Made by a program: the position numbers and the translations under genes. Below the pieces are notes generated by a model, which searched no databases, was not told the DNA's origin, and was given only the letters and a program-made list of their open reading frames with translations. A stretch of DNA of 64,000 nucleotides from an uncultured Candidatus Rokubacteria bacterium (GTDB lineage Bacteria; Methylomirabilota; Methylomirabilia; Rokubacteriales; CSP1-6): positions 650,047 through 714,046 of the forward strand of contig CAVWFS010000018.1 in assembly GCA_963754315.1 (NCBI GenBank). Reading direction: 5' to 3'. Below are positions 1,165-24,112 of this stretch, piece after piece (position 1 is the stretch's first letter; every line of letters starts with the position of its first letter).

Positions 1165-1166
1165 GC

Positions 1167-6436: not shown

Positions 6437-6440
6437 CGAC

Positions 6441-7804: not shown

Positions 7805-8813
7805 GTGGACGAACTGAGAAAGGACACGACGAGCGGCCGTTGGGTTCTCGTCCGTCCGTCGTCCAAGCCCAACTCCGAGAGCGAGTGTTCCTACTGCCCG
7901 GGAGCGGAGCACCTGTCCGGCCCCGAGATCGCCGCGTACCGAAAGGACGGACCCCACCCCAACGGCCCAGGGTGGACGGTCCGGGTCGTACCGGAACGCG
8001 ATCCCTACTTTCGTATCGAGTGGGAGCTCGCGCGCGAGGGGATCGGTATGTTCGACATGATCACGCCTCGGGGGGCCAGCGAGCTGATCATCGAGTCGCC
8101 GACACATACCGACACCTTGGCGTCGATGGACGCCGAACACCTGGAGTCGATCCTCTGGATGTATCGGGACCGTATCATCGACCTCAAGCGCGACGGGCAG
8201 ATCCGCGACATTCTGATCTCGCGTCACCACAAGAAGCCGGGGGTTCCGAATCACCACCCGTACTCGCGGGTGTCAGCGATCCCCATCGTGTTCGATGCGA
8301 CCCGCCGAGAATTGCGGGAGGCGCGCGAGTACTACCAGTACAAGCGCCGATGCCTCTACTGTGACATCCTCCGCCAGGAGGTGGGGGCCGAGGAACGTCT
8401 TGTCCGTCTCACAAAGTTTTTCGCCGTCATCATCCCCTACGCCGCCCGCACCCCCCTGGAGACGTGGATCTTACCTCGACGTCATGGCTGCTCGTTCGAG
8501 GACGCCGTCAATCCTGAGACGACTGCAGACCTGGCCCGCCTGCTGTCAGGGTTCTTTCGCGCGCTGGCCACCGGGTCTGGAAGACCCGAGTTACGAGCTG
8601 GTCCTTCACAACGCTCCCAACATTCGTTCGCGAGTCATGCAAGGGGACTGGTCGAGTATCTACGATGACTATCACTGGCACATCGAGGTCATGACTCAAC
8701 TGGAGAGCGCCAATCGAGTGGGAGGCATCTACGTCAACGAGACGCCACCCGAGACATCGGCCGCCGCGCTGCGCGGTGCCTGGCAGGCGACCGGGGACGG
8801 TCTTCAGGGGTAA
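7805..8813 (+). CDS. GalT-like HIT-family nucleotidyltransferase (galactose-1-phosphate uridylyltransferase/ADP-glucose phosphorylase-like). The reading frame is broken by a +1 frameshift near 8572-8580, so this is either a sequencing error or a pseudogene.
   Basis: N-terminal CSYCPG Zn-motif and central YHWHIE (HxH) motif lie in two different frames: ORF 7688..8668 and ORF 8295..8813. Probable GTG start at 7805, just after the TPR gene stop. Confidence 0.65.
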
Positions 8814-10066
8814 AGACCACGGATTCGGTGACCCTCTGACACCCGGCGGATGCCCTCCATGAGGGCAGCGGTTCGCAGATCGACCCCTTCTTTGGATGCG
8901 ATGGCCCACACTCGGTTGAAGGCTCGCGTCATGACCTCCTGGAGCCTGGACACGATCTCCGTCTCTCGCCAGAAGTAGTACTGGAGGCCCTGGACCCACT
9001 CGAAGTAAGAGACCACCACACCTCCGGCGTTGGCCAGAATGTCGGGAACGACCGTCACCCCGCGTTCACGAAGGAGCTGATCGGCCTCCGGCGTCGTGGG
9101 GCCATTCGCGCCCTCCACCACGATGCTGGCCTTGATCCGCTCGGCGTTATCCTGGTGGATCTGCGAGCCGACCGCGGCCGGAAGCAGGATGTCACACGAC
9201 TGCTCGAGCAGTTCCGAGTTGGTCATGCTCTCTGTCCCTGCAAACCCCGCCACCGTACCGGCCTCGGCCACGTGACCTTCGAGAGCTCGAATGTCGATTC
9301 CGCGCTCGTTCCAAATGCCGCCCTGCACGTCGCTGACACCAGTGATCAGGGCGCCGTCGCGCCAGAGCAGGCGCGCCGCGACGGCTCCGACATTGCCAAA
9401 TCCTTGAATGGCCACCCTCCGTCCTCGCACTTCCTGCCCCAGGCGCTTGGCGGCCTGGTACAGCACGTACACGATGCCGCGGCCAGTCGCCTCCCGGCGG
9501 CCAGCGGACCCGCCAACAATCAAAGGCTTACCGGTGACGACGCCGGGTACGCTCTTGCCCTGGGTCATGGAGTAGGTGTCCATGACCCAGGCCATTGTCT
9601 GCTCGTCAGTGCCGAGGTCAGGAGCCGGGATGTCGAGGTCGGGGCCGATCATCAGGATGATCTCGGCCGTGTAGCGCCGGGTAAGGTTCTCGCGCTCCTG
9701 GACTGACAGCGCTCGGGGGTTACAGCGGACCCCACCCTTCGCCCCCCCGTAGGGCAAGTTCATCAGAGCGCACTTCCAGGTCATGAGCATGGCCAGGGCC
9801 GTGACCTCGCCCAGGTTGACGTCGAGGTCATAGCGGAGTCCACCCTTGGTCGGACCCAGAGCCGTGTTGTGATGGACACGGTACCCAATGAAAACGTTAG
9901 TTTTTCCGTCATCCATGCGAATCGGAATCGAGACCACCAGAGCCCGCCGAGGATACCGGAGGCGTTCGTGAACATCGCTCTCCAGCCCGATCTTGGAAGC
10001 CACGCGGTCCAGCTGGGCGACCGCGGTATGGTAAAGATGTGAATCGAATTCAGGATTTGCGGTCAT
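8804..10066 (-). CDS. gdhA: NAD(P)-specific glutamate dehydrogenase.
   Basis: Glu/Leu/Phe/Val dehydrogenase signature LPYGGAKGG and Rossmann segment GFGNVG. Start taken at MTANPEF. Confidence 0.9.
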   Translation of the reverse strand: MTANPEFDSHLYHTAVAQLDRVASKIGLESDVHERLRYPRRALVVSIPIRMDDGKTNVFIGYRVHHNTALGPTKGGLRYDLDVNLGEVTALAMLMTWKCALMNLPYGGAKGGVRCNPRALSVQERENLTRRYTAEIILMIGPDLDIPAPDLGTDEQTMAWVMDTYSMTQGKSVPGVVTGKPLIVGGSAGRREATGRGIVYVLYQAAKRLGQEVRGRRVAIQGFGNVGAVAARLLWRDGALITGVSDVQGGIWNERGIDIRALEGHVAEAGTVAGFAGTESMTNSELLEQSCDILLPAAVGSQIHQDNAERIKASIVVEGANGPTTPEADQLLRERGVTVVPDILANAGGVVVSYFEWVQGLQYYFWRETEIVSRLQEVMTRAFNRVWAIASKEGVDLRTAALMEGIRRVSEGHRIRGLYP

Positions 10067-10082
10067 GGGACCTCTTTTTCTC

Positions 10083-10088
10083 TTGACG
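10083..10088 (+). promoter_or_regulatory. putative sigma70 -35 hexamer (TTGACG) of the isc promoter.
   Basis: TTGACG about 110 nt upstream of the iscR start, followed by an AT-rich stretch (TGAAAAT) at appropriate spacing. Weak on its own. Confidence 0.3.
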
Positions 10089-10110
10089 CGCATCCGGGAT
10101 CGATGTGAAA

Positions 10111-10133
10111 ATACGACTAAATGAGTCGGCGAT
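10111..10133 (+). promoter_or_regulatory. IscR type-1 operator (autoregulatory site) upstream of iscR.
   Basis: ATACGACTAAATGAGTCGGCGAT fits the type-1 IscR consensus ATASYYGACTRwwwYAGTCRRSTAT. It contains the GACT-N5-AGTC inverted repeat and lies about 65 nt upstream of iscR. Confidence 0.55.
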
Positions 10134-10196
10134 CATAAAGATCGCCAACGGTTCGGGCTGTGACGCGTTCGAGCCGCCTCGGGGTGAGGGATATAG

Positions 10197-10655
10197 ATGC
10201 TCCGTTTTACCAAGCGTGCCGACTACGGGTTGATGGCGATTCATTATATCGCCGTCCACGAGGCAGTCGGTCCTGTCAGCGCGAAAAGGATCTCCGAGCA
10301 GTTCAATATTCCGCCGGAACTGCTGGCCAAGATCCTCCAGCGCCTGGCCAAGCGGGGACTGATCGCCAGCCAGAATGGGCCCAAGGGCGGCTATGTGCTG
10401 AGCCAGCGCTCGACCCAGGTAACGGTGGGGGATGTGATCCGGGCTCTCGAGGGGCCTGTACGCATCGTGAGCTGTTTGGAAGAATCGAGCGACTGCCCGC
10501 AACTGACCCGTTGCAATCTCCGCCGTCCCGTACAGAAGCTGCAGGTTGCCATCACCCAAATGCTGGACTCGATGAGCTTGGCCGAGCTGACCAGCGACGA
10601 CGTGCCAGAGATGCTTTCGATCGCCGGAACCAAGGAGGCCGACCGATGGCGTTGA
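10197..10655 (+). CDS. iscR: Fe-S cluster assembly transcriptional regulator IscR (Rrf2 family).
   Basis: Rrf2 HTH N-terminus (MLRFTKRADYGLMAIHYIA). Three Cys in VSCLEESSDCPQLTRC. Heads the isc operon. Confidence 0.9.
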   Translation: MLRFTKRADYGLMAIHYIAVHEAVGPVSAKRISEQFNIPPELLAKILQRLAKRGLIASQNGPKGGYVLSQRSTQVTVGDVIRALEGPVRIVSCLEESSDCPQLTRCNLRRPVQKLQVAITQMLDSMSLAELTSDDVPEMLSIAGTKEADRWR

Positions 10656-11872
10656 AGTTCCCGATCTTTCTGGACGCGCAGTCGACCACACCCGGCGATC
10701 CCCGGGTGATCGAGGCGATGATCCCATACTTCACCGAGAAGTTCGGTCATCCAGGCAGTCGTAACCACTCGTTCGGGTGGGAAGCGGAGAGCGCTGTCGA
10801 TCGCGCACGCGAACAGATTGGCAAGCTCATCGGTGCCCGCGATCCCAAAGAGATCGTCTTCACCTCCGGAGGGACGGAAGCGATCAACCTGGCCATCAAG
10901 GGTGTCGCCGAGATGTACCGGGAGAAGGGCAATCACATCGTCACCACCGCCATCGAGCAGCGCGCCGGTCTCGATGTCTGTCGGCGACTCGAGCGCCAGG
11001 GCTTCGTGGTGACCCACGTTCCTGTCCAGGCTGATGGGCTGGTGGACGTGGCCGAGATCGCCAAGGCCATCACCGACAAGACCATCCTGATTTCGGTGAT
11101 GTTCGCGAACAACGAGATCGGGACGATCCAGGACATCGCCGCCGTGGGCAAGCTGGCCAAGGACAAGGGAATCATCTTTCACACCGACGCAACCCAGGCC
11201 GTCGGCAAGATCCCTGTCAACGTGGAGAGCATGGGCGTCGATCTGCTCTCGTGTACCGCGCACCTGCTCTACGGGCCCAAGGGGGTGGGAGCTCTCTATG
11301 TCCGACGCAAAGCACCACGCGTTCGCATCGCGCCGCTTCTCGACGGTGGGGGGCACGAGCGCGGCATGCGATCGGGAACCCTTCCCGTTCCGCTCATCGT
11401 GGGCTTCGGGCGGGCGGCGGAGATTTGCGGCGAGGTGATGACGGAGGAAGGTCGCCGCCTGGCACGGCTGCGCGATACCCTGCAAGACACGATCTTGTCC
11501 AGCGTGGACGAGGCGTTTCTCAACGGCCACCCGGAGCGACGATTGCCGCACAACCTGAACATCTCGTTCGCCTACGTGGAGGGGGAGTCGGTCCTGATGG
11601 GGCTTAACAAGGAGACGGCCCTGTCGTCGGGGTCGGCCTGCACCTCGTCGACCCTGGAGCCATCCTACGTGATCGCCGCCCTCGGGGCCAGCGCCGAGCT
11701 CGCCCACTCCTCGATCCGCTTCAGCTTGCACCGGTTCACCACGGACGAGGAAGTGGCCTACGTGGGGAAGCGCACCATTGAGGTTGTGCAGCGTCTACGG
11801 GACATGTCGCCCCTTTACGAGCTGGCCAAAGAAGGTGTCGACCTGAAGACGATTCAGTGGAAAGCTGAGTAA
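10646..11872 (+). CDS. iscS: cysteine desulfurase IscS.
   Basis: MALKFPIFLDAQSTTP..., PLP-Lys context, active-site loop SSGSACTSS. Start overlaps the iscR stop and is preceded by AAGGAGG. Confidence 0.95.
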   Translation: MALKFPIFLDAQSTTPGDPRVIEAMIPYFTEKFGHPGSRNHSFGWEAESAVDRAREQIGKLIGARDPKEIVFTSGGTEAINLAIKGVAEMYREKGNHIVTTAIEQRAGLDVCRRLERQGFVVTHVPVQADGLVDVAEIAKAITDKTILISVMFANNEIGTIQDIAAVGKLAKDKGIIFHTDATQAVGKIPVNVESMGVDLLSCTAHLLYGPKGVGALYVRRKAPRVRIAPLLDGGGHERGMRSGTLPVPLIVGFGRAAEICGEVMTEEGRRLARLRDTLQDTILSSVDEAFLNGHPERRLPHNLNISFAYVEGESVLMGLNKETALSSGSACTSSTLEPSYVIAALGASAELAHSSIRFSLHRFTTDEEVAYVGKRTIEVVQRLRDMSPLYELAKEGVDLKTIQWKAE

Positions 11873-11887
11873 GGGAGGAGCCGGGGC

Positions 11888-12301
11888 ATGGCGTACAGCG
11901 AAAAGGTCGTAGACCACTACAACAACCCCCGCAACGTGGGGTCCTTCGCCAAGGATACGGCCGGAGTGGGGACAGGGCTCGTGGGGGCGCCGGAGTGCGG
12001 TGACGTCATGAAGCTTCAGATCAAGGTGAATCTCGAAACCGGGGTGATCGAGGACGCCAAGTTCAAGACCTTCGGGTGCGGGAGCGCCATCGCTTCCTCG
12101 AGCCTGGCCACCGAATGGTTGAAGGGGAGAACGGTGGAAGAGGCGGGGAAGATCAAGAACACCGACATCGTGAACGAGCTGAAGCTGCCCCCGGTCAAGA
12201 TTCATTGCTCGGTTCTCGCCGAGGACGCCATCAAGGCGGCTCTGGCGGACTACCGGGACAAGCAGGCGAAGTCGGCGGCGGGGACGGCCGCCCAGGGCTA
12301 G
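11888..12301 (+). CDS. iscU: Fe-S cluster scaffold IscU.
   Basis: GAPECGDVMKLQIKV...FKTFGCGSAIASSS...IHCSVLAEDAIKAA conserved IscU Cys/His ligands. Confidence 0.95.
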   Translation: MAYSEKVVDHYNNPRNVGSFAKDTAGVGTGLVGAPECGDVMKLQIKVNLETGVIEDAKFKTFGCGSAIASSSLATEWLKGRTVEEAGKIKNTDIVNELKLPPVKIHCSVLAEDAIKAALADYRDKQAKSAAGTAAQG

Positions 12302-12314
12302 GAGGGGATCAGTC

Positions 12315-12644
12315 ATGAGTGTCGCGCTCTCGGAAGCTGCTACGAAGCAGGTGAAGGAGCTCAAGCAGGCCCAACGCCTTCCCGACAACGTGTTCCTGCG
12401 CATGGGGGTGAAGGGCGGAGGCTGCTCGGGCATGGCGTACGCGCTGGAGTTCGACTCGGAGATCGGACCCCACGACAAGGAGTTCGAGGTCGATGGGGTG
12501 AAGGTTGTCGTCGACCGCAAGAGCTATCTGTATCTGAACGGCACCACGCTCGACTACGTCAAGCAGGGGTTGACAAGCGGCTTCACGTTCGTGAACCCCA
12601 ACGCCAAATCGAGTTGCGGGTGCGGGACATCGTTCTCGGCTTAA
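12315..12644 (+). CDS. iscA: A-type Fe-S carrier IscA.
   Basis: HesB/IscA signature GGGCSGMAY and C-terminal SCGCGTSF. Confidence 0.9.
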   Translation: MSVALSEAATKQVKELKQAQRLPDNVFLRMGVKGGGCSGMAYALEFDSEIGPHDKEFEVDGVKVVVDRKSYLYLNGTTLDYVKQGLTSGFTFVNPNAKSSCGCGTSFSA

Positions 12645-12664
12645 CCGGGTGAGGCGACCGCAAC

Positions 12665-12702
12665 GCCAACGGGCCCGGCTGACCGGGCCCGTTGGCATTT
12701 TT
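12665..12702 (+). terminator. perfect 14-bp GC-rich hairpin followed by a T-tract between iscA and hscB (intrinsic terminator or attenuator inside the isc operon).
   Basis: GCCAACGGGCCCGG-CTGA-CCGGGCCCGTTGGC followed by ATTTTT. Confidence 0.6.
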
Positions 12703-12724
12703 GGACATGCGTCGTGGGAGGGAC

Positions 12725-13316
12725 ATGGACTACTTCGAGATCTTCGGGCTGCCCCGGCGGTTGGCCGTTGACGAGAGCAGCGCTGCAGCGGCGCTTCTAT
12801 GAGCTATCCCGCCAGCATCACCCTGACTTTCATCTGGGTGCCTCGCCGGAGGATCAGGCGCGGGCCCTGAGCACATCGGCCCTGGTCAACGCCGCGTACC
12901 GCGCTCTGCGTGACCCCATCCGACGGATCGAGTATCTGCTTCGCCTCGAAGAGGGACGCGACGCGGAGGAGGGTGAAGCGGTCAAGCCCAAAGCCAGCCC
13001 TGGTCTGCTCGCCGAGATGTTCGAGATCCAGGAGGCACTCCAGGAAGCCAAGGGGGGCGGCGTCGACGAGGCCGGACTGGAGGCTCTGCGTCGGCAACGC
13101 GACGAGCTGAGCGCGCGCTGCCGCGCCGAGGAAACGCGCCTACAGGAGTCGCTTTCGCAGGCGTGGGACGCCGCCCCGCTCGTCGAGCGACCCCGAGCGT
13201 CGGCCGCTCTGCGGGAGGCGCTCGCCACTCGCGCCTATCTGCGGACCGTCATCGATGATCTCAGCCAGGTCCTGGGGGAGGAACAAGAGCCGCATGTCGC
13301 GCATCATCGGCATTGA
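12725..13316 (+). CDS. hscB: Fe-S co-chaperone HscB (J-domain). The N-terminus is encoded in a different frame from the rest of the gene, with an apparent +1 frameshift near 12776-12785.
   Basis: MDYFEIFGLPRRLAVDES (ATG 12725, frame 2) continues as ALQRRFYELSRQHHPDFH (HPD motif) in frame 0, which is ORF 12714..13316. Confidence 0.8.
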
Positions 13317-15126
13317 TCTGGGGACGACCAATAGCCTCGTCGCCTATGTGGACGAGGGGACGGGGCTTCCTCGCGTCATTGCCGACGCGAGCGGGGAAGT
13401 CCTGTTGCCATCCGTGGTCTCGTTCACCCCTGGCGGGATCCTCGTGGGGCATGCCGCGCGGCGCGCGCTGGTCAGGGAGCCGCGGAGCACGATCTATTCG
13501 GTCAAGCGGTTCATGGGGCGAGGTTTCGACGACGTCCGCGACGAGCTTCGCTACTTTCCGTTTACCGTGCGGGCGGTCGACGGCGTCGTCCGTCTGGTGG
13601 CCGGCGACCGTGAGGTGACGCCGCCCGAGGTGTCGGCCGTCATTCTCAAGTCCTTGCGGGAGCGGGCGGCGGCACACCTCGGGGAATCGATCGAGAAGGC
13701 GGTGGTCACCGTGCCCGCCTATTTCAACGATAGCCAGCGGCAGGCCACGCGTGACGCGGGCCGCATCGCGGGCCTCGACGTCGTCCGCATCGTCAACGAG
13801 CCCACGGCGGCTTCCCTCGCCTATGGGTTGCAGCGGCGCCGCGACGGCCTGATCGCCGTCTACGACCTTGGGGGCGGAACGTTCGATATCTCGATTCTGC
13901 GCGTGAAGGACGGAGTGTTCGAGGTGCTGGCCACCAATGGCGACACGCACCTCGGCGGCGACGACGTCGACCGGGCCATCCAGGTGATGTTCTTGGGGGA
14001 CATCCGAACCCGCCACGGGGTCGATCTGGGGGATGATGTCGAGGCCCTCCAGGAGCTCCGCTTGGCGGCGGAGGCAGCCAAGATCCGGCTGTCCACCGAG
14101 GAGCGGACCGTGGTGACCATCCCCTTCGATGGCTTCGTGTACCAGCGGCAGATGAGCCGCCGCGAGCTCGAGGTGCTCATGGAGCCCCTCGTCGCGCGAA
14201 CCCTCCAGCCGTGCCGGGGAGCCCTGCTCGATGCGGGGCTCACGGCAGCTGATATCGACGAGGTCGTTCTCGTGGGCGGATCGACCCGGGTGCCCCTGGT
14301 GCGCCGCCGCGTTCAGGAGCTGTTCGGGCGGACCCCGCACAGTCAGATCAACCCCGACGAGGTCGTGGCGCTCGGCGCCGCCGTGCAGGCTCACATCATG
14401 TCGGGAGGGATCGACCACATGCTGCTGCTCGATGTCACCCCGCTCTCGCTGGGGATCGAGACGTTGGGCGGCATCGTGAGCGTGCTCATTCATCGCAACA
14501 CGACCATCCCCACCAGTGCCAAGGAGCTGTTCACGACCTCGGTCGACGGACAGCGGGTGGTCGACCTGCACGTGGTGCAAGGCGAGCGCGAGCTGGCCAA
14601 GGACTGCCGCTCCCTCGCTCGCTTCGAGCTCTCCGACATCGATCCCATGCCGGCCGGTATGCCGAAGATCGAGATGACCTTCCTGATCGATGCCAATGGC
14701 ATCCTGCAAGTGACGGCGCGTGAGCTCCGCACGGGCAAGGTGGCCTCCATCGACGTGCGGCCGACGTACGGGTTGGCGGAGGCGGACGTGGCGCGGATGG
14801 TGGAAGAGTCGTTCACCTACGCGGAGGCGGACGTGGAGGCGCGCCTGCTCATCGAGACCCGCACGGAGGCCGAGACGGTCATCACGCACGTGGAGCGCGC
14901 CCTGCGGCAAGCGGGCGACCTCGCCACCGCCGAGGAGCGCGAGCAGATCGCCGCCGGGCTGGGGGAACTCCGGCGGGCGTGCGAGGGCACGGATCGAGAT
15001 CTCATCCGCGACAGGACCACCGAGCTCAACCGGATCACGGCCAGGCTGGCCGAGGAGATGATGGACGCCGCCCTCCGCGGGGCGCTCGGTCAGACGACGG
15101 CCGGGCAGAGGGAGGACCCCGCCTGA
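13294..15126 (+). CDS. hscA: Fe-S chaperone HscA (Hsp70 family).
   Basis: [18 protein letters not shown], Hsp70 signatures. Internal start MSRIIG chosen. Overlaps the hscB end. Confidence 0.9.
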
Positions 15127-15449
15127 TGGCCGTGCACAAGGTGACGTTTCTCCCCGCCAATGTCACCATCGAGGTCGACGATGCGAAGTACCCCCTCGCC
15201 GATCACGGCCGACCTGGCTCCCTCCTCGACATCGCTCTTGCTCACGACGTCTCTCTCGAGCACAACTGCGGCGGAAGCTGCGCCTGCACCACCTGTCATG
15301 TCATCGTGCGCCAGGGCGAATCGCATCTCTCGGCGATGGAAGCCGACGAGGAAGATCGACTCGACATGGCCGAGGGGCTGACCATTCACTCCCGTCTTGG
15401 CTGCCAGGCGATCGTGCAGGGCGACGTGACGGTGGAGATTCCCAAGTGA
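15126..15449 (+). CDS. fdx: [2Fe-2S] ferredoxin of the ISC system.
   Basis: [11 protein letters not shown]...C ligands. TGATG overlap with the hscA stop. Confidence 0.9.
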
Positions 15450-15454
15450 CACAG

Positions 15455-15655
15455 ATGGGTTGGCGCGACGCGGAAGATATCGGCATCGCCCTGGCCGAGC
15501 GTTTTCCCGACCTCGATCCCCTCACGGTGCGTTTCACCGATCTGCATCGCTGGGTGACCGAGTTGCCCGGGTTCGGCGATGACCCGAAGGGGTCGAACGA
15601 AAAGATCTTGGAAACCATTCAGATGGCCTGGCTGGACGAGTACCGGAACCGCTAG
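15455..15655 (+). CDS. iscX: IscX (YfhJ) Fe-S assembly accessory protein.
   Basis: [34 protein letters not shown]...[15 protein letters not shown] matches E. coli IscX closely. Confidence 0.85.
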
Positions 15656-15674
15656 GGTCTCTCCACCCGATGCC

Positions 15675-15896
15675 TCACCAACTGATCACTTGATCGGCAG
15701 CGAAGACGAGATCCAGGAGTTGGTCATACGAGAGGTCGGCGGGAACACGATGTGTGGTCACCCCGGGCGGGAGCGCGAGGAGTCCGGGGCCGGTCACGGC
15801 CACCGTCACCGTATCGCCGGCCGCGACCTGTCCGCGGATGACGTCGAGAGCACGCGACCAATCGGGCTGGCCGACAATGTGGAGCACGGCCGCCAT
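15675..15896 (-). CDS. DsrH/TusB-like sulfur-relay protein.
   Basis: About 73 aa from MAAVLHIV to the C-terminal W. Resembles the TusB/DsrH fold. Third gene of a DsrE-F-H ordered triplet. Confidence 0.55.
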   Translation of the reverse strand: MAAVLHIVGQPDWSRALDVIRGQVAAGDTVTVAVTGPGLLALPPGVTTHRVPADLSYDQLLDLVFAADQVISW

Positions 15897-16252
15897 CAGA
15901 AGCTGAGGACGCGCCGGCTGGCACGCACGAGGTCGACGATGGTGGCTGCGTTCACGAGTCTGACGGGATGGCCATCGGCGTTCCAATCGGACTCGGACGG
16001 CCGCGACGCCTCCTCCACGTGGAAGGGGATTCCAAGGGCCTTAAGGTTGGAGCGAAACTTGGCAATGTCGTCACCATCGACGAGGTCATCGGTATCGCCG
16101 TCGAGGAGGTGGACACCGGGACCCGTGAGCACGAAGGTGACCTCGTTCTCTCCCGAGACGATGCCAAGCCCGATCCGCATGGCCTCATTGGCCCGGTGGG
16201 ACTGGCGGGGATCGAGGGAGATGAGCACGAGGACGGGGCCCTGGTCGGTCAC
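15896..16252 (-). CDS. DsrF/TusC-like sulfur-relay protein.
   Basis: 118 aa DsrE/DsrF-like fold (VLVLISLDPRQSHRANEAMRIGLGIV...EVTFVLTGPGV). Middle gene of the triplet. Confidence 0.55.
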   Translation of the reverse strand: MTDQGPVLVLISLDPRQSHRANEAMRIGLGIVSGENEVTFVLTGPGVHLLDGDTDDLVDGDDIAKFRSNLKALGIPFHVEEASRPSESDWNADGHPVRLVNAATIVDLVRASRRVLSF

Positions 16253-16268
16253 GAGACGGCGAGGGGGC

Positions 16269-16592
16269 TCAGTTGAGCGCGATGAAGCGGTCGGTGCCGT
16301 TGATGATGTCGGTCAGCACCACCAGACCGCAGTACGTGATGTCGCTGGCGTCCTCCAATGGGATCCTGCGCTTCTGGCACCCGTAGGCGCAGACGAAGAG
16401 CTTGGCTCCCTGTGCGGGCAGTGCGCGCACACGCGGTTCGGCGAGGGCGGTGACCCCGTCGTCGATGAGGTAGAGATACACGGACGCCCCACGCCCGAGG
16501 GCAGCGGTGGCCAGGCCGAGGGCCGTTTCGAGGTTCACATGCTGGGGCCCGGTCGAGAGCATCAGACCGAGCTTTTTTCGGGCTAGATCCAT
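16269..16592 (-). CDS. DsrE/TusD-like sulfur-relay protein (candidate active-site Cys in KLFVCAYGC).
   Basis: DsrE-family architecture with a conserved Cys region. Probable start at MDLARKK. Divergent from the nifS-like gene. Confidence 0.55.
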   Translation of the reverse strand: MDLARKKLGLMLSTGPQHVNLETALGLATAALGRGASVYLYLIDDGVTALAEPRVRALPAQGAKLFVCAYGCQKRRIPLEDASDITYCGLVVLTDIINGTDRFIALN

Positions 16593-16632
16593 CCGGGGGA
16601 GCCTAGCATCGGGTAGGGAGGAGAGCAAGCGC

Positions 16633-17790
16633 ATGAGTCGTCGAGTGTACCTGGATCACAACGCGTCGACGCCGGTCCATCCCGAAGTCGTGGCGGAGAT
16701 GCTGCCGTTCTTGACCGAGCGTTTTGGCAACCCGTCGAGTGTGCACGCCTTTGGCCGCGAAGCGCGGGAAGGGCTCGACCTGGCTCGTGAAAAGGTGGCC
16801 CGGCTACTCGGGGTGCGGCCGGACGAGGTCGTCTTCACGTCGGGGGGGACGGAGTCGGACAACTTCGCGCTCAAGGGGCTGGCGGAGGCAAGAGGGAAGG
16901 GACACATCATCACCTCGCGCATCGAGCACCACGCGGTGCTTCGGACATGCCAGGCTCTGGAGAGCCTCGGCTTCGCAGTCACCTATCTCCCAGTGGACAA
17001 GCACGGTATGGTCGACCCCGACGACGTCCGCCGCGCCATTCGCCCGGACACGTTCATCGTCAGCGTGATGCACGCTAACAGCGAGATCGGTACCGTTCAG
17101 CCCATCGCTGCCATCGGGGCCGTGGCCCGTGAGCACGACATCACTTTCCATGTGGACGCCGTGCAGACCTTCGGGAAGATCCCGATCGAGGTGGAGGGTT
17201 GGGGAATTGACCTCCTATCTTGCTCGGCGCATAAGATCTACGGTCCAAAGGGGGTGGCCGCCCTCTTCATCCGACGAGGGACTAAGATGGTCTCCATCCA
17301 GCACGGGGGCGAGCACGAACGTCGCCGCCGAGCCGGGACAGAGAACGTGGCCAGTATTGTGGGCTTTGGCAAGGCGGCGGAGGTGCGAGCGCGTGACATG
17401 GTGGAGGAAGGCAAGCGTCTGCGCGCCCTCCGTGAGCGCCTGTGGGAGGGGATCAGCGCACGCGTGCCCGACGTGCGGCTGAACGGCCATCCGACGGCGC
17501 GCGTGCCCGGCACCGTCAACCTGGGTTTCCGCCACGTGGAATCGGAGTCCATCGTGCTGGGCCTCGACCTGAAAGGTATCGCAGTCTCCGCTGGCTCTGC
17601 CTGTACCTCCGGGAATGTCGAGCCGTCCTACGTCCTGGTGGCCATGGGAGTTGCCCTCGAATGGGCCATGGGGGCCGTGCGCTGTTCGCTCGGACGCGAG
17701 ACCACCGCAGAGGACGTGGACTATGTCATCGACTGTGCGGTACCCCTCGTGCGCAAGCTCCGTGAGGCCCTTCCGGCGGCCGCCGTCTGA
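16633..17790 (+). CDS. second cysteine desulfurase (NifS/IscS-like, class I aminotransferase-V).
   Basis: [21 protein letters not shown] (PLP-Lys), active-site loop SAGSACTSG. Start MSRRVY at 16633. Confidence 0.9.
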
Positions 17791-17801
17791 GGTACGAGAC
17801 C

Positions 17802-18467
17802 ATGTTTGACTCGATCCGCCGCGACATTCAAGTGGTCCTCGAGCGCGATCCAGCCGCCCGCTCAGCTCTGGAGGTTCTGGTTTGCTATCCGGGGGTCCAC
17901 GCCCTCGCCTTTCATCGCCTCGGGCATCGCTTCTGGCAGGCAGGATGGCCGACCCTGGCCCGTTTCACCTCCCATGTCGCACGCGCCCTCACCGGCATCG
18001 AGATCCATCCCGCCGCCCGGCTCGGGAATGGTCTCTTCATCGATCACGGGATGGGGGTGGTGATCGGAGAGACGGCGGAGGTCGGGGAAAATGTGACTTT
18101 GCTCCAGGGGGTGACACTCGGCGGGACCAGCCTCAAGCGTGAGAAGCGCCATCCTACGCTCGGCGACAACGTGGTCGTGGGGGCGGGTGCGGCCGTCCTC
18201 GGCGCCATCGCCATCGGTGACAACAGCCGGATCGGAGCCGGTTCGGTCGTGGTGCGCGACGTGCCGGCCAACGCCGTGGTGGTGGGTGTCCCGGGGAAGG
18301 TGACCTACAAAGACGGCCAGCGGGTGAGCGCCGGGATTGACCTGAACCAGACGGATCTGCCCGATCCGGTCGCGAAAGCGATCGAGCATCTGCTCGACCG
18401 CATCCAGACGCTCGAGGGGGAGGTCGAGGCGCTCCGGCGCGTGACGGAGTCGGAGCGGGTCGAGTGA
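17802..18467 (+). CDS. cysE: serine O-acetyltransferase.
   Basis: SAT N-terminal domain plus hexapeptide repeats ([41 protein letters not shown]). Confidence 0.9.
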
Positions 18468-18485
18468 ACTGCCGGGTGACCTGAC

Positions 18486-19055
18486 ATGAACCGGGAAACG
18501 GCGTGGGCGATTCTGACCGAATTCACCCAGGGCGATAGCCTCCGAAAGCACGCTCGGGCCGTGGAGGCCTCCATGCGCGCGTACGCGGTCCGCTTCGGAG
18601 AGGATCCCGAGGTGTGGGGCACCGCCGGGATCTTGCACGACTTCGACTACGAGATGCATCCACTTGCCCCGGCCCACCCACTGAAAGGGGCCGAGATCCT
18701 GCTCGCCCGCGGTGTCTCCGACCCTGTCATTCGCGCCATCGTTGCCCACGCTGACTACGCTGGCATGCCGCGGGTGACGTTGCTCGACCGAGCGCTTTAC
18801 GCTTGCGACGAGCCCACGGGTTTCATCCATGCCTGCGCCCTCGTCCGGCCGGGTCGCGTCATCAGTGGCATGCCCGCTTCGTCGGTGCGCAAGAAGCTCA
18901 AGGACAAGGGGTTTGCACGCACGGTGAACCGCGACGATGTGTATCGGGGCGCGGTCGAGTTGGGCATCGAACTCGACGAGCACTGCGACTTCATCGTGGC
19001 GGCCCTGAGCGAGATCGCCCCCGAAATCGGTTTGCGCCAATCTTCCGAAACCTAG
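18486..19055 (+). CDS. HD-domain phosphohydrolase.
   Basis: Spaced H...HD...D metal-binding residues (GILHDFDYEMH, AHADYAG). Family level only. Confidence 0.65.
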   Translation: MNRETAWAILTEFTQGDSLRKHARAVEASMRAYAVRFGEDPEVWGTAGILHDFDYEMHPLAPAHPLKGAEILLARGVSDPVIRAIVAHADYAGMPRVTLLDRALYACDEPTGFIHACALVRPGRVISGMPASSVRKKLKDKGFARTVNRDDVYRGAVELGIELDEHCDFIVAALSEIAPEIGLRQSSET

Positions 19056-19116
19056 CCGGTTCGACTCCGGCTCTCGGGGGCCTGTCAAAACTCCGCTGCA
19101 AGCCGCGATAAGGTCT

Positions 19117-19350
19117 CGAGGGCGTCCTGAGCGAGGTGGGGTTTGGGGGGGGGCCCGCCATTTCGGGGCCTACGAGAGCGAGCGCAGGACCGAGGGGCGC
19201 CCCGGGTAACCCGGGGCGTCCTGAGCGAAGGGGGGTTTGGGGGGCCATTTCGGGGCCCCCACGAGCGAGCGCAGGACCGAGGGGCGCCCCGGGTAACCCG
19301 GGGCGTCCTGAGCGAAGGGGGGTTTGGGGGGCCATTTCGGGGCCCCCCAA
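19117..19350. repeat. about 2.6 tandem copies of an ~87-bp GC-rich element carrying nested palindromes/hairpins (REP-like or MITE-like).
   Basis: Unit GGGGCGTCCTGAGCGAAGGGGGGTTTGGGGGGCCATTTCGGGGCCCCCACGAGCGAGCGCAGGACCGAGGGGCGCCCCGGGTAACCC is repeated directly. Contains GGGGCGCCCC, CCCGGG-TAA-CCCGGG and GGGGGGCC-ATTTC-GGGGCCCCC. Confidence 0.85.
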
Positions 19351-19358
19351 TAAAACAA

Positions 19359-20540
19359 TTGCCCATCGTTCACGTCGACATGGACGCCTTCTACGCGGCT
19401 GTCGAGCAACGCGACAGGCCCGAGCTACGCGGTCGCCCCGTCATCGTGGGCGCCAACCCCCGTGGACGGGGAGTGGTGTCAGCAGCTTCTTACGAGGCGC
19501 GGCCGTTTGGCGTTCGCTCGGCAATGCCCATCGGCCAGGCGGCGCGACTGTGCCCCGAGGCGGTGTTTCTGCCCGTCGACATGCCACGCTACCAGCGGGT
19601 CTCCACCCAGATCATGGAGCTCCTCGCGACCTTCTCGCCTCTCGTGGAGCAGATCTCGGTGGACGAGGCGTTCTTGGATCTTACCGGTACCGAGTCGCTG
19701 TTCGGCGACCCGGTCGATGCCGTGCGGCGAATCAAGACGATGATCCACGCCGAGACGGGACTGACCGCGTCGGCGGGGCTGGCGTCGAACAAGTTCGTGG
19801 CAAAGGTCGCCTCCGATCTCGGGAAGCCTGATGGCCTTGTCGTGGTCCCATCAGGCGAGGAATCCGCGTTCCTGGCTCCACTTCCGGTCGAGCGGCTGTG
19901 GGGGGTGGGACGCGTCATGGCGAAGGAACTGCAGGCGCTCGGGATCCGCACCATCGGCCACCTGCAGGCGCTGCCGCGCCGCGTGCTTGCCCGACGGTTC
20001 GGTCAACATGGTGATCACCTGTTCGAACTCGCTCGGGGACGCGACCGACGGCCGGTGGAGCCGGACGTGACGGCAAAGTCCATTGGAGCCGAGGAGACCT
20101 TTGCGCGCGACTGCCGGGATCCGGGGCGACTCCTGCTCGTTCTCCGCGCTCACGCCGAGCGAGTAGCCGCGGAGGTCCGGCGCCAGAATCTCGCCGCTGC
20201 CTGCGTCGCGGTGAAGGTTCGCTTCGCCGACTTCAGCACCGTGACGCGACGCTCCAGTGGGGACCCGACCCAGGACGGCCTCGAACTGTATCGGCGGGCG
20301 ACGATTCTCCTGCGCCGCGTCTCGTCGTCCCAGCCCGTAAGACTGATCGGTCTCTCTGTGTCGCAGCTGACAGCCGCGGGGCGAGGGCAGCTTCCCCTGC
20401 TTGACGGTGCTGCCCTCCGGCGAGAGCGGTTGGCGCGGGCGGTCGACGGGCTGACGCAACGGTTTGGTCTCGACACTGTGCGGCCCGCCTCGCTGTTAGA
20501 ACGGCGCGAGGACGACTCGCGGCCTCGCCGTTCGACCTGA
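19359..20540 (+). CDS. dinB: DNA polymerase IV (Y-family translesion polymerase). Start is uncertain: TTG at about 19359 or ATG at 19380.
   Basis: IVHVDMDAFYAAVEQRDRPELRGRPVIVG, SIDEAFLDLTG, palm/fingers motifs. The ORF-track N-terminal extension (19143) runs through the repeat array and is rejected. Confidence 0.85.
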   Translation: MPIVHVDMDAFYAAVEQRDRPELRGRPVIVGANPRGRGVVSAASYEARPFGVRSAMPIGQAARLCPEAVFLPVDMPRYQRVSTQIMELLATFSPLVEQISVDEAFLDLTGTESLFGDPVDAVRRIKTMIHAETGLTASAGLASNKFVAKVASDLGKPDGLVVVPSGEESAFLAPLPVERLWGVGRVMAKELQALGIRTIGHLQALPRRVLARRFGQHGDHLFELARGRDRRPVEPDVTAKSIGAEETFARDCRDPGRLLLVLRAHAERVAAEVRRQNLAAACVAVKVRFADFSTVTRRSSGDPTQDGLELYRRATILLRRVSSSQPVRLIGLSVSQLTAAGRGQLPLLDGAALRRERLARAVDGLTQRFGLDTVRPASLLERREDDSRPRRST

Positions 20541-20548
20541 TCCGCAAG

Positions 20549-21373
20549 TTGCCTCGTCGCGAGACTTCGAATACACTGACTGAACAGCGGTTCAGTCTGG
20601 CCGGAGGTGCCTCTCGAATGGATCGGCCGATCTCCTATGACAAGCTCGCGCGCGAGGACCGATTCGTCAGGATGCGTGCCAGGGATGTGGCCGCCCTGAA
20701 AGTCGAGCAGGGACTTCCGCCTTTCCCCGACCTGGCTAGCCGCCCGTCCATGTGCGAGCGGGTGCACGGTATCTTCGTGGGCGAGTTGCAGGCAATGGAG
20801 GGCGCCGGGCGTACGGTCTACGACTTCCCGGACGCGCCCTGGGAGTTCACCATGGACATGGCGCGACAAGTGTGGGATGAATCGCGCCACGTTGAGATCT
20901 ACCTCGGTCTCCTCGACCACCTGGATGGCTACGTGGGCGAGTTTCCAGAGACGACCATCCTGTGGCGCTGCGCCTGCGCCGAGGACGCCGCAGCGCGCGT
21001 GGCGGGTGTCAACCGCGGACTCGAGGGGCTCGCTTGTGACGTCTTCAACCAACTCATTCACATCGCGGGCAAGATCGGCGATCCGATCATCGAGAAGTCG
21101 GTGGACTATGTGCTGGCCGATGAGATCACCCATGTGCGCATGGGATCGAAGTGGCTCAACAAGCTGACCGAGGGCAATCCGGAGCGGCGCCAGCGCGCTA
21201 TTGAATTCCAGGAGTCGATCGACGATCGCTTCAATCTGGGCGGGGTGCGCCAGGACGGACAGCACGAACAAGTCCAGATTTCCATCGCCAAGGACGCCCG
21301 CCGACTAGCCGGATTCACCGACGAGGAAATCGAGCGTCTGATCAAGAGCACACAGCGTTCGCCCGTCTATTGA
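20549..21373 (+). CDS. ferritin-like diiron-fold protein (DUF455-like). Function unknown.
   Basis: Two E-x-x-H motifs spaced as in diiron four-helix bundles: DESRHVEIY and DEITHVRMG. Start may be the internal MDRPISY. Confidence 0.45.
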   Translation: MPRRETSNTLTEQRFSLAGGASRMDRPISYDKLAREDRFVRMRARDVAALKVEQGLPPFPDLASRPSMCERVHGIFVGELQAMEGAGRTVYDFPDAPWEFTMDMARQVWDESRHVEIYLGLLDHLDGYVGEFPETTILWRCACAEDAAARVAGVNRGLEGLACDVFNQLIHIAGKIGDPIIEKSVDYVLADEITHVRMGSKWLNKLTEGNPERRQRAIEFQESIDDRFNLGGVRQDGQHEQVQISIAKDARRLAGFTDEEIERLIKSTQRSPVY

Positions 21374-22335
21374 TGGACGGTCATCGCCTCGCCGGCGACC
21401 TGTCGGTCGACGCCTCGGCCCGCCTGATCCGCCACTACCGCTACGTCGAGGAGCGGATGATGCGTGTGATGGGCGGCTGGATCGCTCTCACCCCCGAACT
21501 GCCTGCCAAGCTCTTGCTCGGTCGTCACGTGTGGGATTGCGCCCAGCATGCCGACCTGTGGGGGCGTCGCCTTCCCGAGTTGCGCACAGCCACGCAGCAG
21601 TCGGAACCGGCTAACGAGGCGGTCGTCCGCTTCATGGATACTCTGGAGGCCGAGGAGGGTTACGCCGAAACGCCAGAGCGCCTGGCCGGGATCTACCGTG
21701 TGCTCAAACCCCACCTGCTGTCGGTGTACATCAACCACCGTGCCCGGGCCAATCCCGTGTTCGAGCCACCCACGCGGCGAATCCTTGATCGCTGTGTGGA
21801 CGAGGAGTCTCGGCACGCCGCTGCTGGCCAGATCGTGCTGGAGGCCTTGACCCGTGAGCCGGATCCCCGCCGGCGAGCCGAGGCTTGGGAGGAGCAGCTT
21901 CAGCGAGCCCTGCAGGAGGCAGGGGGGATCACCGGTAACACCCCCGTTCAGCCGGGTGCGAGGATCACCCACCCCCGCGCCTACGATGACGTGATCTCCC
22001 TCGGCCGGGTTTTGGCCAGGCCGGACCTGCCCGTTGAGCTGAAGCGTGAGCTCGACCGCCATCGGCGCGCCGTCGAAGCCGGCGACCTCGCGTCGCTGGC
22101 GGCGCAGGTCTTCGAGGCCGAATGGGAACACGTGCAGACCGAGTATGGGAGGCTGTCCGTTCCGCTCACGGCCTCCGAGGTCGTCGCCGTCGCAAAGATC
22201 GGCGCCTATCGAATGGTCAAGCTGGCCTTCAAAGGTCCACGTGGCCTCGCCGTCGTCCAACAGCAGTGGCGACAGGCCGACGACGCCTGGCGGCTCTACA
22301 GCGCGGAAGTGGTACGTATCGAACCTGCCGCCTGA
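21373..22335 (+). CDS. hypothetical protein with ferritin-like N-terminal region (DEESRHAAAG) and an uncharacterised C-terminal domain. Translationally coupled to the upstream ferritin-like gene.
   Basis: TGATG overlap with the upstream gene. Single E-x-x-RH motif. No other recognisable family. Confidence 0.4.
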   Translation: MDGHRLAGDLSVDASARLIRHYRYVEERMMRVMGGWIALTPELPAKLLLGRHVWDCAQHADLWGRRLPELRTATQQSEPANEAVVRFMDTLEAEEGYAETPERLAGIYRVLKPHLLSVYINHRARANPVFEPPTRRILDRCVDEESRHAAAGQIVLEALTREPDPRRRAEAWEEQLQRALQEAGGITGNTPVQPGARITHPRAYDDVISLGRVLARPDLPVELKRELDRHRRAVEAGDLASLAAQVFEAEWEHVQTEYGRLSVPLTASEVVAVAKIGAYRMVKLAFKGPRGLAVVQQQWRQADDAWRLYSAEVVRIEPAA

Positions 22336-22374
22336 CCCGGTGATTTTCCCTTGAAAGCCTGGTGCGGTTCCCAT

Positions 22375-22557
22375 GAGCCCCCAGCATCTCCCGTTGGCGC
22401 CCTCGGGCCCCGAGGCGTTCGAGCGTCGGGTGGGGCGGCATGGGGGGGCCCGTTCGAGGCCCCAGCATCTGGCGTGGGATCGAGGGGCGCCCCGGGTTGC
22501 CCGGGGCGTGCCGAGCGTTGGGGGGGCATGGGGGGCCCGTTCGAGGCCCCCCATCTA
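22375..22557. repeat. about 2 tandem copies of a ~90-95-bp GC-rich hairpin element homologous to the 19117-19350 repeat.
   Basis: GGGGCGCCCCGGGTTGCCCGGGGCGTGCCGAGCGTTGGGGGGGCATGGGGGGCCCGTTCGAGGCCCCCC is roughly 80% identical to the unit at 19.2 kb. An upstream partial copy is ...CATGGGGGGGCCCGTTCGAGGCCCC. Confidence 0.8.
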
Positions 22558-23904
22558 ATGTTCAAGACCGTCCTCGTCGCTAACAGGGGCGAGATCGCCC
22601 GTCGCGTCTTTCGCGCGTGCCGGCGCCTCGGGGTCCGGACGGTAGCCGTCTTTTCGGAGGCTGACGCCGACTCGCTTCACGTCCGGGAGGCCGATTCAGC
22701 TGTGCTCATTGGGCCTCCTCCCGCCCGCCAGAGCTATCTGGCCATCGACAGGATCATCGCGGCGGCCCATCGAACCGGTGCCGATGCCGTGCATCCTGGT
22801 TATGGATTCCTCTCGGAGAACTGGCAGTTTGCGGACGCGTGCGTACGCGCGGGCTTGGCTTTCGTAGGGCCGTCGCCGGATGCCATCCGCGCCATGGGCG
22901 ACAAAACAGAGGCACGCCGGATCATGAGGGCGGCAGGCCTGCCCATCGTGCCCGGCAGTCCGGGACCTGCCGGCGATCAGGGCGAGGTCGCGCGGATTGC
23001 TACGGAGGTCGGCTATCCGGTGATCCTCAAGGCTGCGGGTGGGGGCGGTGGTATCGGTATGGCCCGGGTGAACAAAGGATCCGAGCTGGCCTCCGCTTAC
23101 GCCACCGCGGCGCGACGAGCCCAGGCGGCGTTCGGCACGGACACGCTCTATGTCGAGCGCTATCTCGAGCGGCCGCGTCACGTCGAAGTTCAGGTGTTCG
23201 GGGACAGCCATGGAGCACTCCTACACCTGCACGAGCGGGAGTGCTCGATCCAGCGCCGCCACCAGAAACTCGTTGAGGAATCGCCGGCCCCTGTGCTCGC
23301 GTCCCCCACACGCGCCGCGCTCGCTGCGGCCGCTGTGACGGGGGCTCGGACCATCGGGTATGAGAATGCGGGGACCGTGGAGTTCCTCGTCGACCAGGCC
23401 GGTCACTTCTATTTCCTCGAGATGAATACCCGGCTGCAGGTCGAGCATGCCGTTACCGAGGAAGTGACCGGCCTCGACCTCGTCGTCGAGCAGCTTCGGG
23501 TGGCGGCGGGTGAGCGCCTTAGCTGGTCGCCCGAGACTGTCGTCTCGCGCGGGTCGGCCATCGAGTGCAGGGTGTACGCTGAGGATCCCGACCGAGCGTT
23601 CCTTCCGTCGCCTGGAACGATCGGCCGTCTCGAGCTGCCGACCGGGAAGGGTGTACGGGTCGAGTCGGGAGTCGAAGTGGGCAGCACGGTGTCCGTCCAC
23701 TACGACCCTTTGTTGTTCAAGCTCATCGTCCATGGGGATTCCCGGGTGGAGGCCCTCGGACTGATGGAGGATGCTCTACATCGCTGCCTGGTCGACGGCG
23801 TCAAGACCAATCTGGCCTTCCTGCGGCGCGTGATAGCCTCGGAGGCGTTTCGCGTCGGACAGACTCATACGCAGATGGTCGAACAAGGAGCCTTCAATGC
23901 CTGA
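22558..23904 (+). CDS. accC: biotin carboxylase subunit (ATP-grasp), 449 aa.
   Basis: MFKTVLVANRGEIA..., ATP-grasp glycine-rich loop, FLEMNTRLQVEH, C-terminal BC domain. ATG at 22558 lies after the repeat array. Confidence 0.9.
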   Translation: MFKTVLVANRGEIARRVFRACRRLGVRTVAVFSEADADSLHVREADSAVLIGPPPARQSYLAIDRIIAAAHRTGADAVHPGYGFLSENWQFADACVRAGLAFVGPSPDAIRAMGDKTEARRIMRAAGLPIVPGSPGPAGDQGEVARIATEVGYPVILKAAGGGGGIGMARVNKGSELASAYATAARRAQAAFGTDTLYVERYLERPRHVEVQVFGDSHGALLHLHERECSIQRRHQKLVEESPAPVLASPTRAALAAAAVTGARTIGYENAGTVEFLVDQAGHFYFLEMNTRLQVEHAVTEEVTGLDLVVEQLRVAAGERLSWSPETVVSRGSAIECRVYAEDPDRAFLPSPGTIGRLELPTGKGVRVESGVEVGSTVSVHYDPLLFKLIVHGDSRVEALGLMEDALHRCLVDGVKTNLAFLRRVIASEAFRVGQTHTQMVEQGAFNA

Positions 23905-24112
23905 GGAGATCAAGGCGCATATCACGGGTGTCGTCTTTCAGATCACTGCCAAGCCCGGAGACTCCGTGGCCAGCGGCGATCCCGTGATTGTGCTGGAGTC
24001 CATGAAAATGGAAATCCCTGTAGAGGCGCCGCGCGCCGGCTCGGTCCTGGAGGTCTGTGTTCAGGAGGGGCAGACGGTTCAGGAGGGCGATACTGTTGCG
24101 CTTCTTGAGTGA
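23897..24112 (+). CDS. minimal biotin carboxyl carrier protein (71-aa biotinyl domain only).
   Basis: Biotinylation motif ESMKME inside a hybrid-barrel biotinyl/lipoyl domain. Overlaps the accC stop. Confidence 0.8.
   Translation: MPEEIKAHITGVVFQITAKPGDSVASGDPVIVLESMKMEIPVEAPRAGSVLEVCVQEGQTVQEGDTVALLE

Follow-up and report, generated by a model that had tools for sequence, protein, structure and literature searches.

Three small minus-strand genes in a 64,000-nucleotide stretch of DNA from an uncultured Candidatus Rokubacteria bacterium (contig CAVWFS010000018.1; this whole 64-kb stretch is referred to here as the window) encode, as profile and model comparisons show, shortened homologues of DsrE/TusD, DsrF/TusC and DsrH/TusB in the canonical order. 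The trio, whose products are termed E-like, F-like and H-like, lies between the iron-sulfur cluster (ISC) assembly operon and a second cysteine desulfurase gene; it belongs to a clade of compact relays related to DsrEFH/TusBCD that have a shortened H subunit and stand in housekeeping contexts, and it is not a new kind of system. With slightly better than even confidence, we read the trio as a compact DsrEFH/TusBCD-type persulfide relay that most likely supplies MnmA for the s2U34 modification of tRNA. In such a relay, a class I cysteine desulfurase, either IscS or the adjacent NifS-like enzyme, would mobilise sulfane sulfur from cysteine, and Cys68 of the E-like protein would accept it, either directly or by way of a TusA-type carrier whose gene lies elsewhere, before the sulfur was passed to a biosynthetic acceptor, most likely the tRNA 2-thiouridine(34) synthase MnmA. 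Neither the F-like nor the H-like protein contains a Cys, and both would act as structural partners in a complex of about 32 kDa per E-F-H trimer, and the operon would be transcribed as a leaderless mRNA from its own promoter in the 40-bp gap that separates it from the desulfurase gene.

Homology of the three subunits

The E-like protein (107 amino acids [aa]; 16269-16592, minus strand) was recognised directly by the Pfam model PF02635 (28.4 bits; cutoff, 22.7 bits). When a profile of 47 diverse relatives was compared with PDB sequences, the best matches were Allochromatium vinosum DsrE (2hy5_A, 9e-6) and Escherichia coli TusD (2d1p_A, 6e-5), and alignment with E. coli TusD by hhalign extended over the full length (94.8%). 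An AlphaFold (AF2) model computed on 32 homologues had a predicted local distance difference test score (pLDDT) of 96.3, and Foldseek returned DsrE 2hy5_A as its best PDB match (E = 5.5e-7; template modelling [TM] score, 0.82), with YchN as the second-best fold match. Conservation of the Cys in KLFVCAYGC had been set beforehand, in an earlier reading of the DNA made from its letters alone (the sequence-only reading), as a test of the sulfur-relay interpretation, and it was borne out. Cys68, the first Cys of FVCAYGC and the candidate persulfide site, was the sole invariant column in the alignment of the 47 homologues and aligned with the active-site Cys78, that is, with the Cys within MVVCVAAAQRRG of DsrE and LNICVAAALRRG of TusD. 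The second Cys of the motif was not conserved.

The invariant Cys also bears on whether the E-like protein carries a DsrE fold that has nothing to do with sulfur relay, serving a redox ('peroxiredoxin-like') function or the binding of a small molecule instead. Several homologues are labelled 'predicted peroxiredoxin' by the Joint Genome Institute (JGI), and many DsrE-fold proteins, including YchN, are uncharacterised; however, the only residue that never varies is a Cys at the position where persulfide carriage has been proven in DsrE/TusD and in DsrE type II, and the E-F-H architecture together with recurrent TusA, ThiF, MnmA and desulfurase neighbours points to sulfur transfer. We therefore regard a role outside sulfur relay as highly improbable.

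The F-like protein (118 aa with a GTG start; 15896-16252, minus strand) is a DsrF/TusC-type paralogue that on its own scored 19.9 bits against PF02635, under the cutoff of 22.7. At the level of its family, 10 of 17 members matched this model (best, 1.5e-9), and the F-like profile aligned with the E-like profile over the full length in hhalign (93.5%); by the profile-level homology of its relatives, the protein is a member of the DsrE/DsrF-like family PF02635. Its alignment with E. coli TusC was full-length but weak, and no DsrF/TusC match was obtained when the F-like profile was compared with PDB sequences. The protein contains no Cys, and the residues that are invariant among its homologues sit in the motif DPRxSHRxxEAxRIAxG.

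The H-like protein (73 aa; 15675-15896, minus strand), which has no Cys at all, was the most difficult of the three to place. Alone it had no match in Pfam or NCBIfam, even at an E value of 10, and its single-sequence AlphaFold model (pLDDT, 64) gave no Foldseek matches. A profile built solely from the H-like proteins of Rokubacteria and Verrucomicrobia had no PDB match and aligned with TusB/DsrH over just 20 C-terminal residues. When Nitrospirota forms of 77-93 aa were included (alignment A8), hhalign gave 96.6% and E = 6e-10 against TusB/DsrH/TM0979, and 4 of the 19 members of this alignment matched PF04077 (DsrH/TusB) directly, the best at 2.8e-8. These Nitrospirota relatives keep the DsrH-type segments 'vvLiQDGV' and 'vyvL.dD..RG', whereas the Rokubacteria and Verrucomicrobia forms are without the central 'vYvL.dDl.aRG' segment; the assignment of the window protein as a truncated DsrH/TusB homologue is thus made only through the Nitrospirota intermediates. 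Of 88 loci with an F-like gene, 80 also had an H-like gene by tblastn.

Taken together, profiles, hhalign comparisons and the E-like model upheld the proposal of the sequence-only reading that the three open reading frames (ORFs) belong to the DsrE/DsrF/DsrH (TusD/C/B) families in canonical order. The Pfam check that it had suggested gave a divided answer: the E-like protein passed PF02635, while the F-like protein fell under the cutoff and the H-like protein had no match, both being placed only through profiles built from relatives. A solid functional annotation is thereby gained for three genes that are mostly 'hypothetical' in public records. The order E, F, H on one strand was kept in the window and in all relatives and matches the TusBCD order D(E)-C(F)-B(H). 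In addition, at least nine natural E-F fusion proteins of about 230 aa were found among cluster representatives, and because such fusions exist, a physical complex of E and F is supported. The calculated mass of an E-F-H trimer is 31.8 kDa.

When 1.84 billion cluster representatives were searched exhaustively (E up to 1e-3), only 226 belonged to the E-like family (clusters at 50% identity), which makes it a small branch of its own within the DsrE superfamily. Its carriers were Rokubacteria, Nitrospirota (including Nitrospira and Manganitrophaceae) and Verrucomicrobiota (including the cultured Fontisphaera persica).

Genomic context and the candidate sulfur acceptor

An ISC operon, a convergent H-F-E trio and a divergent nifS-like operon occurred in this order, without exception, in the genomes of about 80 Rokubacteria species and in many metagenome contigs (the genome loci were the best 80 of a genome-contig scan, all of them Rokubacteria; more distant contexts came from a metagenome scan and single look-ups). 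Because the order recurs in every one of these genomes and in further metagenome contigs, the arrangement is not due to chance. In most Rokubacteria, a NifU_N scaffold gene (PF01592, 6e-30) follows the nifS-like gene, and a 60-aa HTH_17 gene stands between cysE and the HD phosphohydrolase gene that follows it. The window and its closest relative (L111) are without both nifU (window gap 17790-17802) and the HTH_17 gene (window gap 18467-18486; compare L001, 5564-6805), and several further Rokubacteria lineages are without nifU only. Judging from this distribution, the nifS-like module is ancestrally a NifS/NifU-type Fe-S module with cysE, from which the window has lost nifU and the small HTH gene.

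The trio had been proposed to serve a sulfur route separate from Fe-S assembly. The sulfur-relay half of this proposal stood, in that the proteins belong to a relay family; the separateness was not supported in the form given, since NifU_N follows the nifS-like gene in most Rokubacteria, so that the neighbouring nifS-cysE-HD module is itself of Fe-S type and not obviously apart from Fe-S assembly. The same neighbourhood gives some substance to the view that the trio is an accessory of Fe-S biogenesis, which would receive or buffer the persulfide supplied by IscS or by the NifS-like desulfurase, as SufE and CsdE do for SufS and CsdA, and feed or regulate the sulfur reaching IscU/NifU scaffolds. 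The trio is wedged between the ISC operon and the nifS-nifU-cysE operon in all Rokubacteria loci, its -35 box overlaps the nifS-like ribosome-binding site, and adjacency to iscX, fdx or hscA is seen again, in differing arrangements, in no fewer than four other lineages (L096, L095/L169, L149/L166, L129 and L142/L152). However, many carriers have the trio far from Fe-S genes (the hisS-dnaA setting of Nitrospira, and Fontisphaera), and adjacency to ISC genes suits supply of MnmA equally well, because IscS also provides sulfur for tRNA thiolation. Moreover, DsrE-family proteins are not known to take part in ISC or NIF assembly. An Fe-S accessory role is, on balance, unlikely.

Outside Rokubacteria, the nifS adjacency was absent, and the nifS-like neighbour, which the sequence-only reading had treated as a defining feature, turned out to be lineage-specific: in other phyla the neighbours were mnmA, tusA, the 3' end of the ISC operon, or hisS and dnaA. 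On a Manganitrophaceae contig (L096; Nitrospirota, 51% GC), mnmA (8855-9988) is the next gene upstream of E-F-H and has the same orientation, with an ISC operon convergent on the trio. The encoded protein matches PF03054 (7e-65), is named MnmA in the source record and carries the CC...CxxC motifs of the Fe-S-dependent C-type MnmA (a type defined in PMC7025502). At a second locus (L129), iscA-hscB-hscA is followed by a divergent tusA (PF01206, 1.6e-25) and then by E-F-H, and E-F stands beside iscX, fdx or hscA in non-Rokubacteria contigs of varied GC (L095, L169, L149, L166, L142 and L152). In 24 Nitrospira-type contigs the trio is found just downstream of hisS, followed in 13 of the 24 by dnaA and in some by dnaN and gyrB beyond it; this hisS/dnaA-dnaN-gyrB setting is a housekeeping context.

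Candidate Desulfobacterota-like relatives sit in ThiS/ThiF/TusA contexts. A distant compact branch of E/F(/H) proteins was observed in ThiS-ThiF-E-F-PALP, ThiF-E-F-H-TusA and E-F-H-TusA operons (L176, 888-3679; L177; L178, 5189-7150; L179, 6001-7089), and the operons of this branch suggest links to thiocarboxylate-type sulfur transfer.

Within the window, the sequence-only reading had reported that no TusA, TusE/DsrC or MnmA was present, and this held: the 64 kb contained no tblastn match to TusE, TusA or MnmA, a CPxP screen of the small ORFs disclosed no TusA-like protein, and among the larger ORFs none was annotated as TusA, TusE/DsrC, MnmA or DsrAB. The 64-kb window otherwise holds housekeeping genes.

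MnmA and s2U34 in tRNA are favoured as the target of the relay because mnmA and tusA occur as neighbours in relatives and because the contexts are housekeeping ones. The earlier guess of tRNA thiolation is in this way made more probable by the relatives. Several observations weigh against it. The absence of TusA, TusE/DsrC and MnmA from the window is one; further, mnmA adjacency was seen in a single lineage (L096) and direct tusA adjacency at three loci (L129, L178 and L179), no sulfur-metabolism gene is near the trio of Fontisphaera persica, and the Rokubacteria H-like subunit is without the central DsrH segment. The synteny within Rokubacteria could, moreover, be inherited rather than functional. 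Finally, a TusE homologue was found within 10 kb of the trio at none of about 178 loci, and on that account the E. coli TusBCD-TusE-MnmA route is not reproduced here. Going beyond MnmA supply by the trio itself, we put forward tentatively, as possible rather than probable, that a widespread TusE-free Tus-like pathway exists beyond the gammaproteobacteria, in which compact E-F-H proteins of Methylomirabilota, Nitrospirota and Verrucomicrobiota would carry sulfur from ISC- or NifS-type desulfurases, with or without TusA, to a C-type MnmA for s2U34 synthesis in tRNA. If this is true, the 'DsrEFH type II-like' genes would include a clade of considerable size that serves housekeeping and does not mark dissimilatory sulfur oxidation.

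Locus layout, the divergent gap and the rest of the window

The layout, which was read from the ORF listing and the sequence, agreed with the one first described: an H-F-E trio on the minus strand that converges on iscX and diverges, across about 40 bp, from a plus-strand series of nifS-like, cysE and HD genes. The ISC operon iscR-iscS-iscU-iscA-hscB-hscA-fdx-iscX (10197-15655, plus strand) was assigned from its ORFs and synteny, with fdx and iscX identified by Pfam/NCBIfam; iscX (15446-15655, plus strand) matched PF04384 at 1e-32 and TIGR03412 at 7e-31. Only 19 nt (15656-15674) separate the stop codons of the convergent iscX and H-like genes, and because this gap contains no terminator-like hairpin, the two transcripts would overlap unless otherwise terminated. 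In relatives the corresponding gap ranges from 7 to about 215 nt. A generic terminator scan returned one chance-level terminator-like site only, inside cysE, and an Rfam search of 8000-24000 gave no match.

The H-like ATG overlaps the TGA with which the F-like gene ends (TGATG). From this overlap F and H are predicted to be translationally coupled, which, like the E-F fusions, lends indirect support to assembly of the subunits into a heterotrimer or an E2F2H2 heterohexamer. Longer mechanical ORFs (an E-like frame of 121 aa reaching to 16634 and an H-like frame of 103 aa) were rejected as real genes, as homologue lengths and gene overlaps favour the shorter starts; nearly all E-like homologues have 107 aa.

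The divergent gap between the E-like and nifS-like genes measures exactly 40 nt in the window (16593-16632) and, with few exceptions, 36-43 nt across the Rokubacteria loci. Each of the 87 distinct sequences compared upstream of the Rokubacteria trio contained TTGnnn, a spacer of 17-18 nt, an extended -10 element TGnTA[CG]GCT and a start codon 6-10 nt further on. The elements of the window (16600-16628, minus strand) comprise a -35 box TTGCTC (16623-16628), a 17-nt spacer and an extended -10 element TGnTAGGCT (TAGGCT at 16600-16605), with 7 nt to the E-like ATG. From this conservation we infer a sigma-70-type promoter belonging to the trio and giving rise to a leaderless or near-leaderless mRNA; the leaderless reading fits because no Shine-Dalgarno (SD) sequence precedes the E-like gene. 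The trio -35 box and the nifS-like ribosome-binding site, which lie on opposite strands, overlap. Alternatively, the conserved elements may be a binding site for a regulator, and a generic consensus promoter scan called no promoter in the gap, the conserved elements included.

The nifS-like gene (16633-17790, plus strand), preceded by the SD sequence GGAGAG, encodes a protein of 385 aa that scored 524.9 bits against the NifS model TIGR03402 (cutoff, 530.75) and exceeded the cutoff of the IscS-subfamily model NF002806 (341 vs 304). Its best PDB relatives were cysteine desulfurases/IscS (1e-110 to 1e-118), and it has the pyridoxal phosphate (PLP)-binding Lys (SAHK) and SAGSAC active-site motifs; by these similarities it is a class I (NifS/IscS-type) desulfurase. 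Next in the operon is cysE (17802-18467, plus strand), which encodes serine O-acetyltransferase (TIGR01172, 242.1 bits; cutoff, 210.65). The last gene (18486-19055, plus strand) encodes an HD/HDIG metal-dependent phosphohydrolase (PF01966, 27.2 bits; TIGR00277 HDIG, 31.6 bits) for which a PDB sequence search found no relative; its position is kept across Rokubacteria loci.

Elsewhere in the window, a tandem 87-nt repeat of about 2.4 copies (95% identical; 19120-19331) containing the palindrome GGGGCGCCCCGGGTAACCCGGGGCG occurs between the HD gene and dinB, and a diverged copy (67%) is found at 22447-22533, upstream of a biotin carboxylase gene. The repeat looks like an intergenic element of the repetitive extragenic palindrome (REP) or miniature inverted-repeat transposable element (MITE) type, and it creates spurious long ORFs on both strands. 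Of two adjacent genes downstream of dinB (20549-22335), one encodes a DUF455 protein of 274 aa and the other a protein of 321 aa without a Pfam match. A BatA/VWA aerotolerance-like cluster at 43-7793 consists of an ORF without a Pfam match, a DUF58 protein, a 1460-aa BatA-VWA-GATase1-like protein and a TPR protein.

Comparison with known systems

The closest published relative of the trio, compared by its published description, is DsrEFH type II (Plum-Jensen et al., ISME J 2026, PMC13293266), a compact system that is poorly recognised by sequence annotation, with a predicted trimer of 33 kDa and an active Cys67. Sulfur transfer in type II proceeds via DsrE Cys67, with exchange with TusA and donation to DsrC in vitro, and the genes are found mainly in Desulfobacterota and Nitrospirota, beside tusA and yeeE/yedE and mostly together with reductive dsrAB (PMC13293266). 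The two systems share three small co-transcribed genes that annotation recognises poorly, a compact trimer (33 kDa there, 31.8 kDa here), a DsrE of about 105 aa whose cysteine is Cys67 there and Cys68 here, and, in distant members of the family to which the trio belongs, an encoded association with tusA. They differ in that the window neighbours are ISC genes, nifS-like, cysE and HD, in that synteny with dsr, tusA or yeeE/yedE is lacking from both the window and the Rokubacteria loci, and in that the H subunit is further truncated here, to 73 aa.

This resemblance is one ground for supposing that the trio is itself a dissimilatory, type II-like DsrEFH with DsrC as its acceptor, in support of sulfur oxidation or disproportionation through DsrAB; type II also has a Nitrospirota-rich subtype (PMC13293266), and some Rokubacteria do have dsrAB (PMC6018805). 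Nevertheless, dsr genes, tusA and yeeE/yedE were absent from the window and from the flanks of the trio in Rokubacteria loci, and the trio occurs in every sampled Rokubacteria genome, in Nitrospira and in Fontisphaera, none with adjoining dsr genes. Nitrite oxidation by Nitrospira and the heterotrophic lifestyle of Fontisphaera also speak against a dissimilatory role. Furthermore, the dsrEFH genes reported with Rokubacteria dsrAB group with canonical sulfur-oxidiser sequences (PMC6018805), and neither Methylomirabilota, the phylum of the Rokubacteria host, nor Verrucomicrobiota is among the phyla listed for type II (PMC13293266). From its context and its presence at every sampled locus, we judge the window trio to be probably a different set from the dsrEFH reported with dsrAB, and we give a dissimilatory function a slimmer chance than an Fe-S accessory one. 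The distinction has a practical side, in that dsrEFH has been used as a genomic marker for sulfur oxidation in uncultivated bacteria (PMC6018805) and compact DsrEFH type II has been proposed as a sign of hidden sulfur-oxidation capacity (PMC13293266); with a compact E-F-H clade fixed in housekeeping contexts (ISC, nifS, mnmA and hisS-dnaA), use as a dissimilatory marker needs a check of context.

DsrEFH type I of A. vinosum (PDB 2HY5) supplies the best structural and profile match of the E-like protein, DsrE, and shares with the trio the E-F-H order and the equivalent of Cys78. Unlike type I, the trio stands outside a dsr cluster, its subunits are all shorter with loop deletions, and the H-like protein is without any Cys; the conserved Cys20 of DsrH has no counterpart in it. 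Bacillus subtilis YrvO-MnmA and the minimal NifS/NifU Fe-S modules resemble the locus in placing a second class I desulfurase beside sulfur-acceptor genes, and as in NifS/NifU-type modules, nifS-like, nifU_N and cysE are clustered in most Rokubacteria. A DsrE-type relay is not known to take part in those systems, however, and the window has no nifU_N.

With respect to the function that we favour, supply of sulfur to MnmA, the pertinent comparison is with E. coli TusBCD (tusD-tusC-tusB; PDB 2D1P). The trio departs from it in subunit size (107/118/73 aa here vs 128/119/95 aa), in a similarity detectable by profiles only and in having no TusE near it at any locus, and the trio-adjacent MnmA of L096 has C-type CC...CxxC motifs, unlike the D-type MnmA of E. 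coli. According to 2010 work, as cited in PMC7025502, upstream sulfur routes to MnmA vary, and because they vary, Rokubacteria, Nitrospira and Verrucomicrobiota may use a Tus-like relay for tRNA thiolation, which bears on how this modification gets its sulfur outside the gammaproteobacteria. The gene order is the same in both systems and the active Cys is aligned in the D/E subunit; both also have a biosynthetic or housekeeping genomic context, and the neighbours found in relatives of the trio, mnmA in one and tusA in others, suit the logic of the Tus system.

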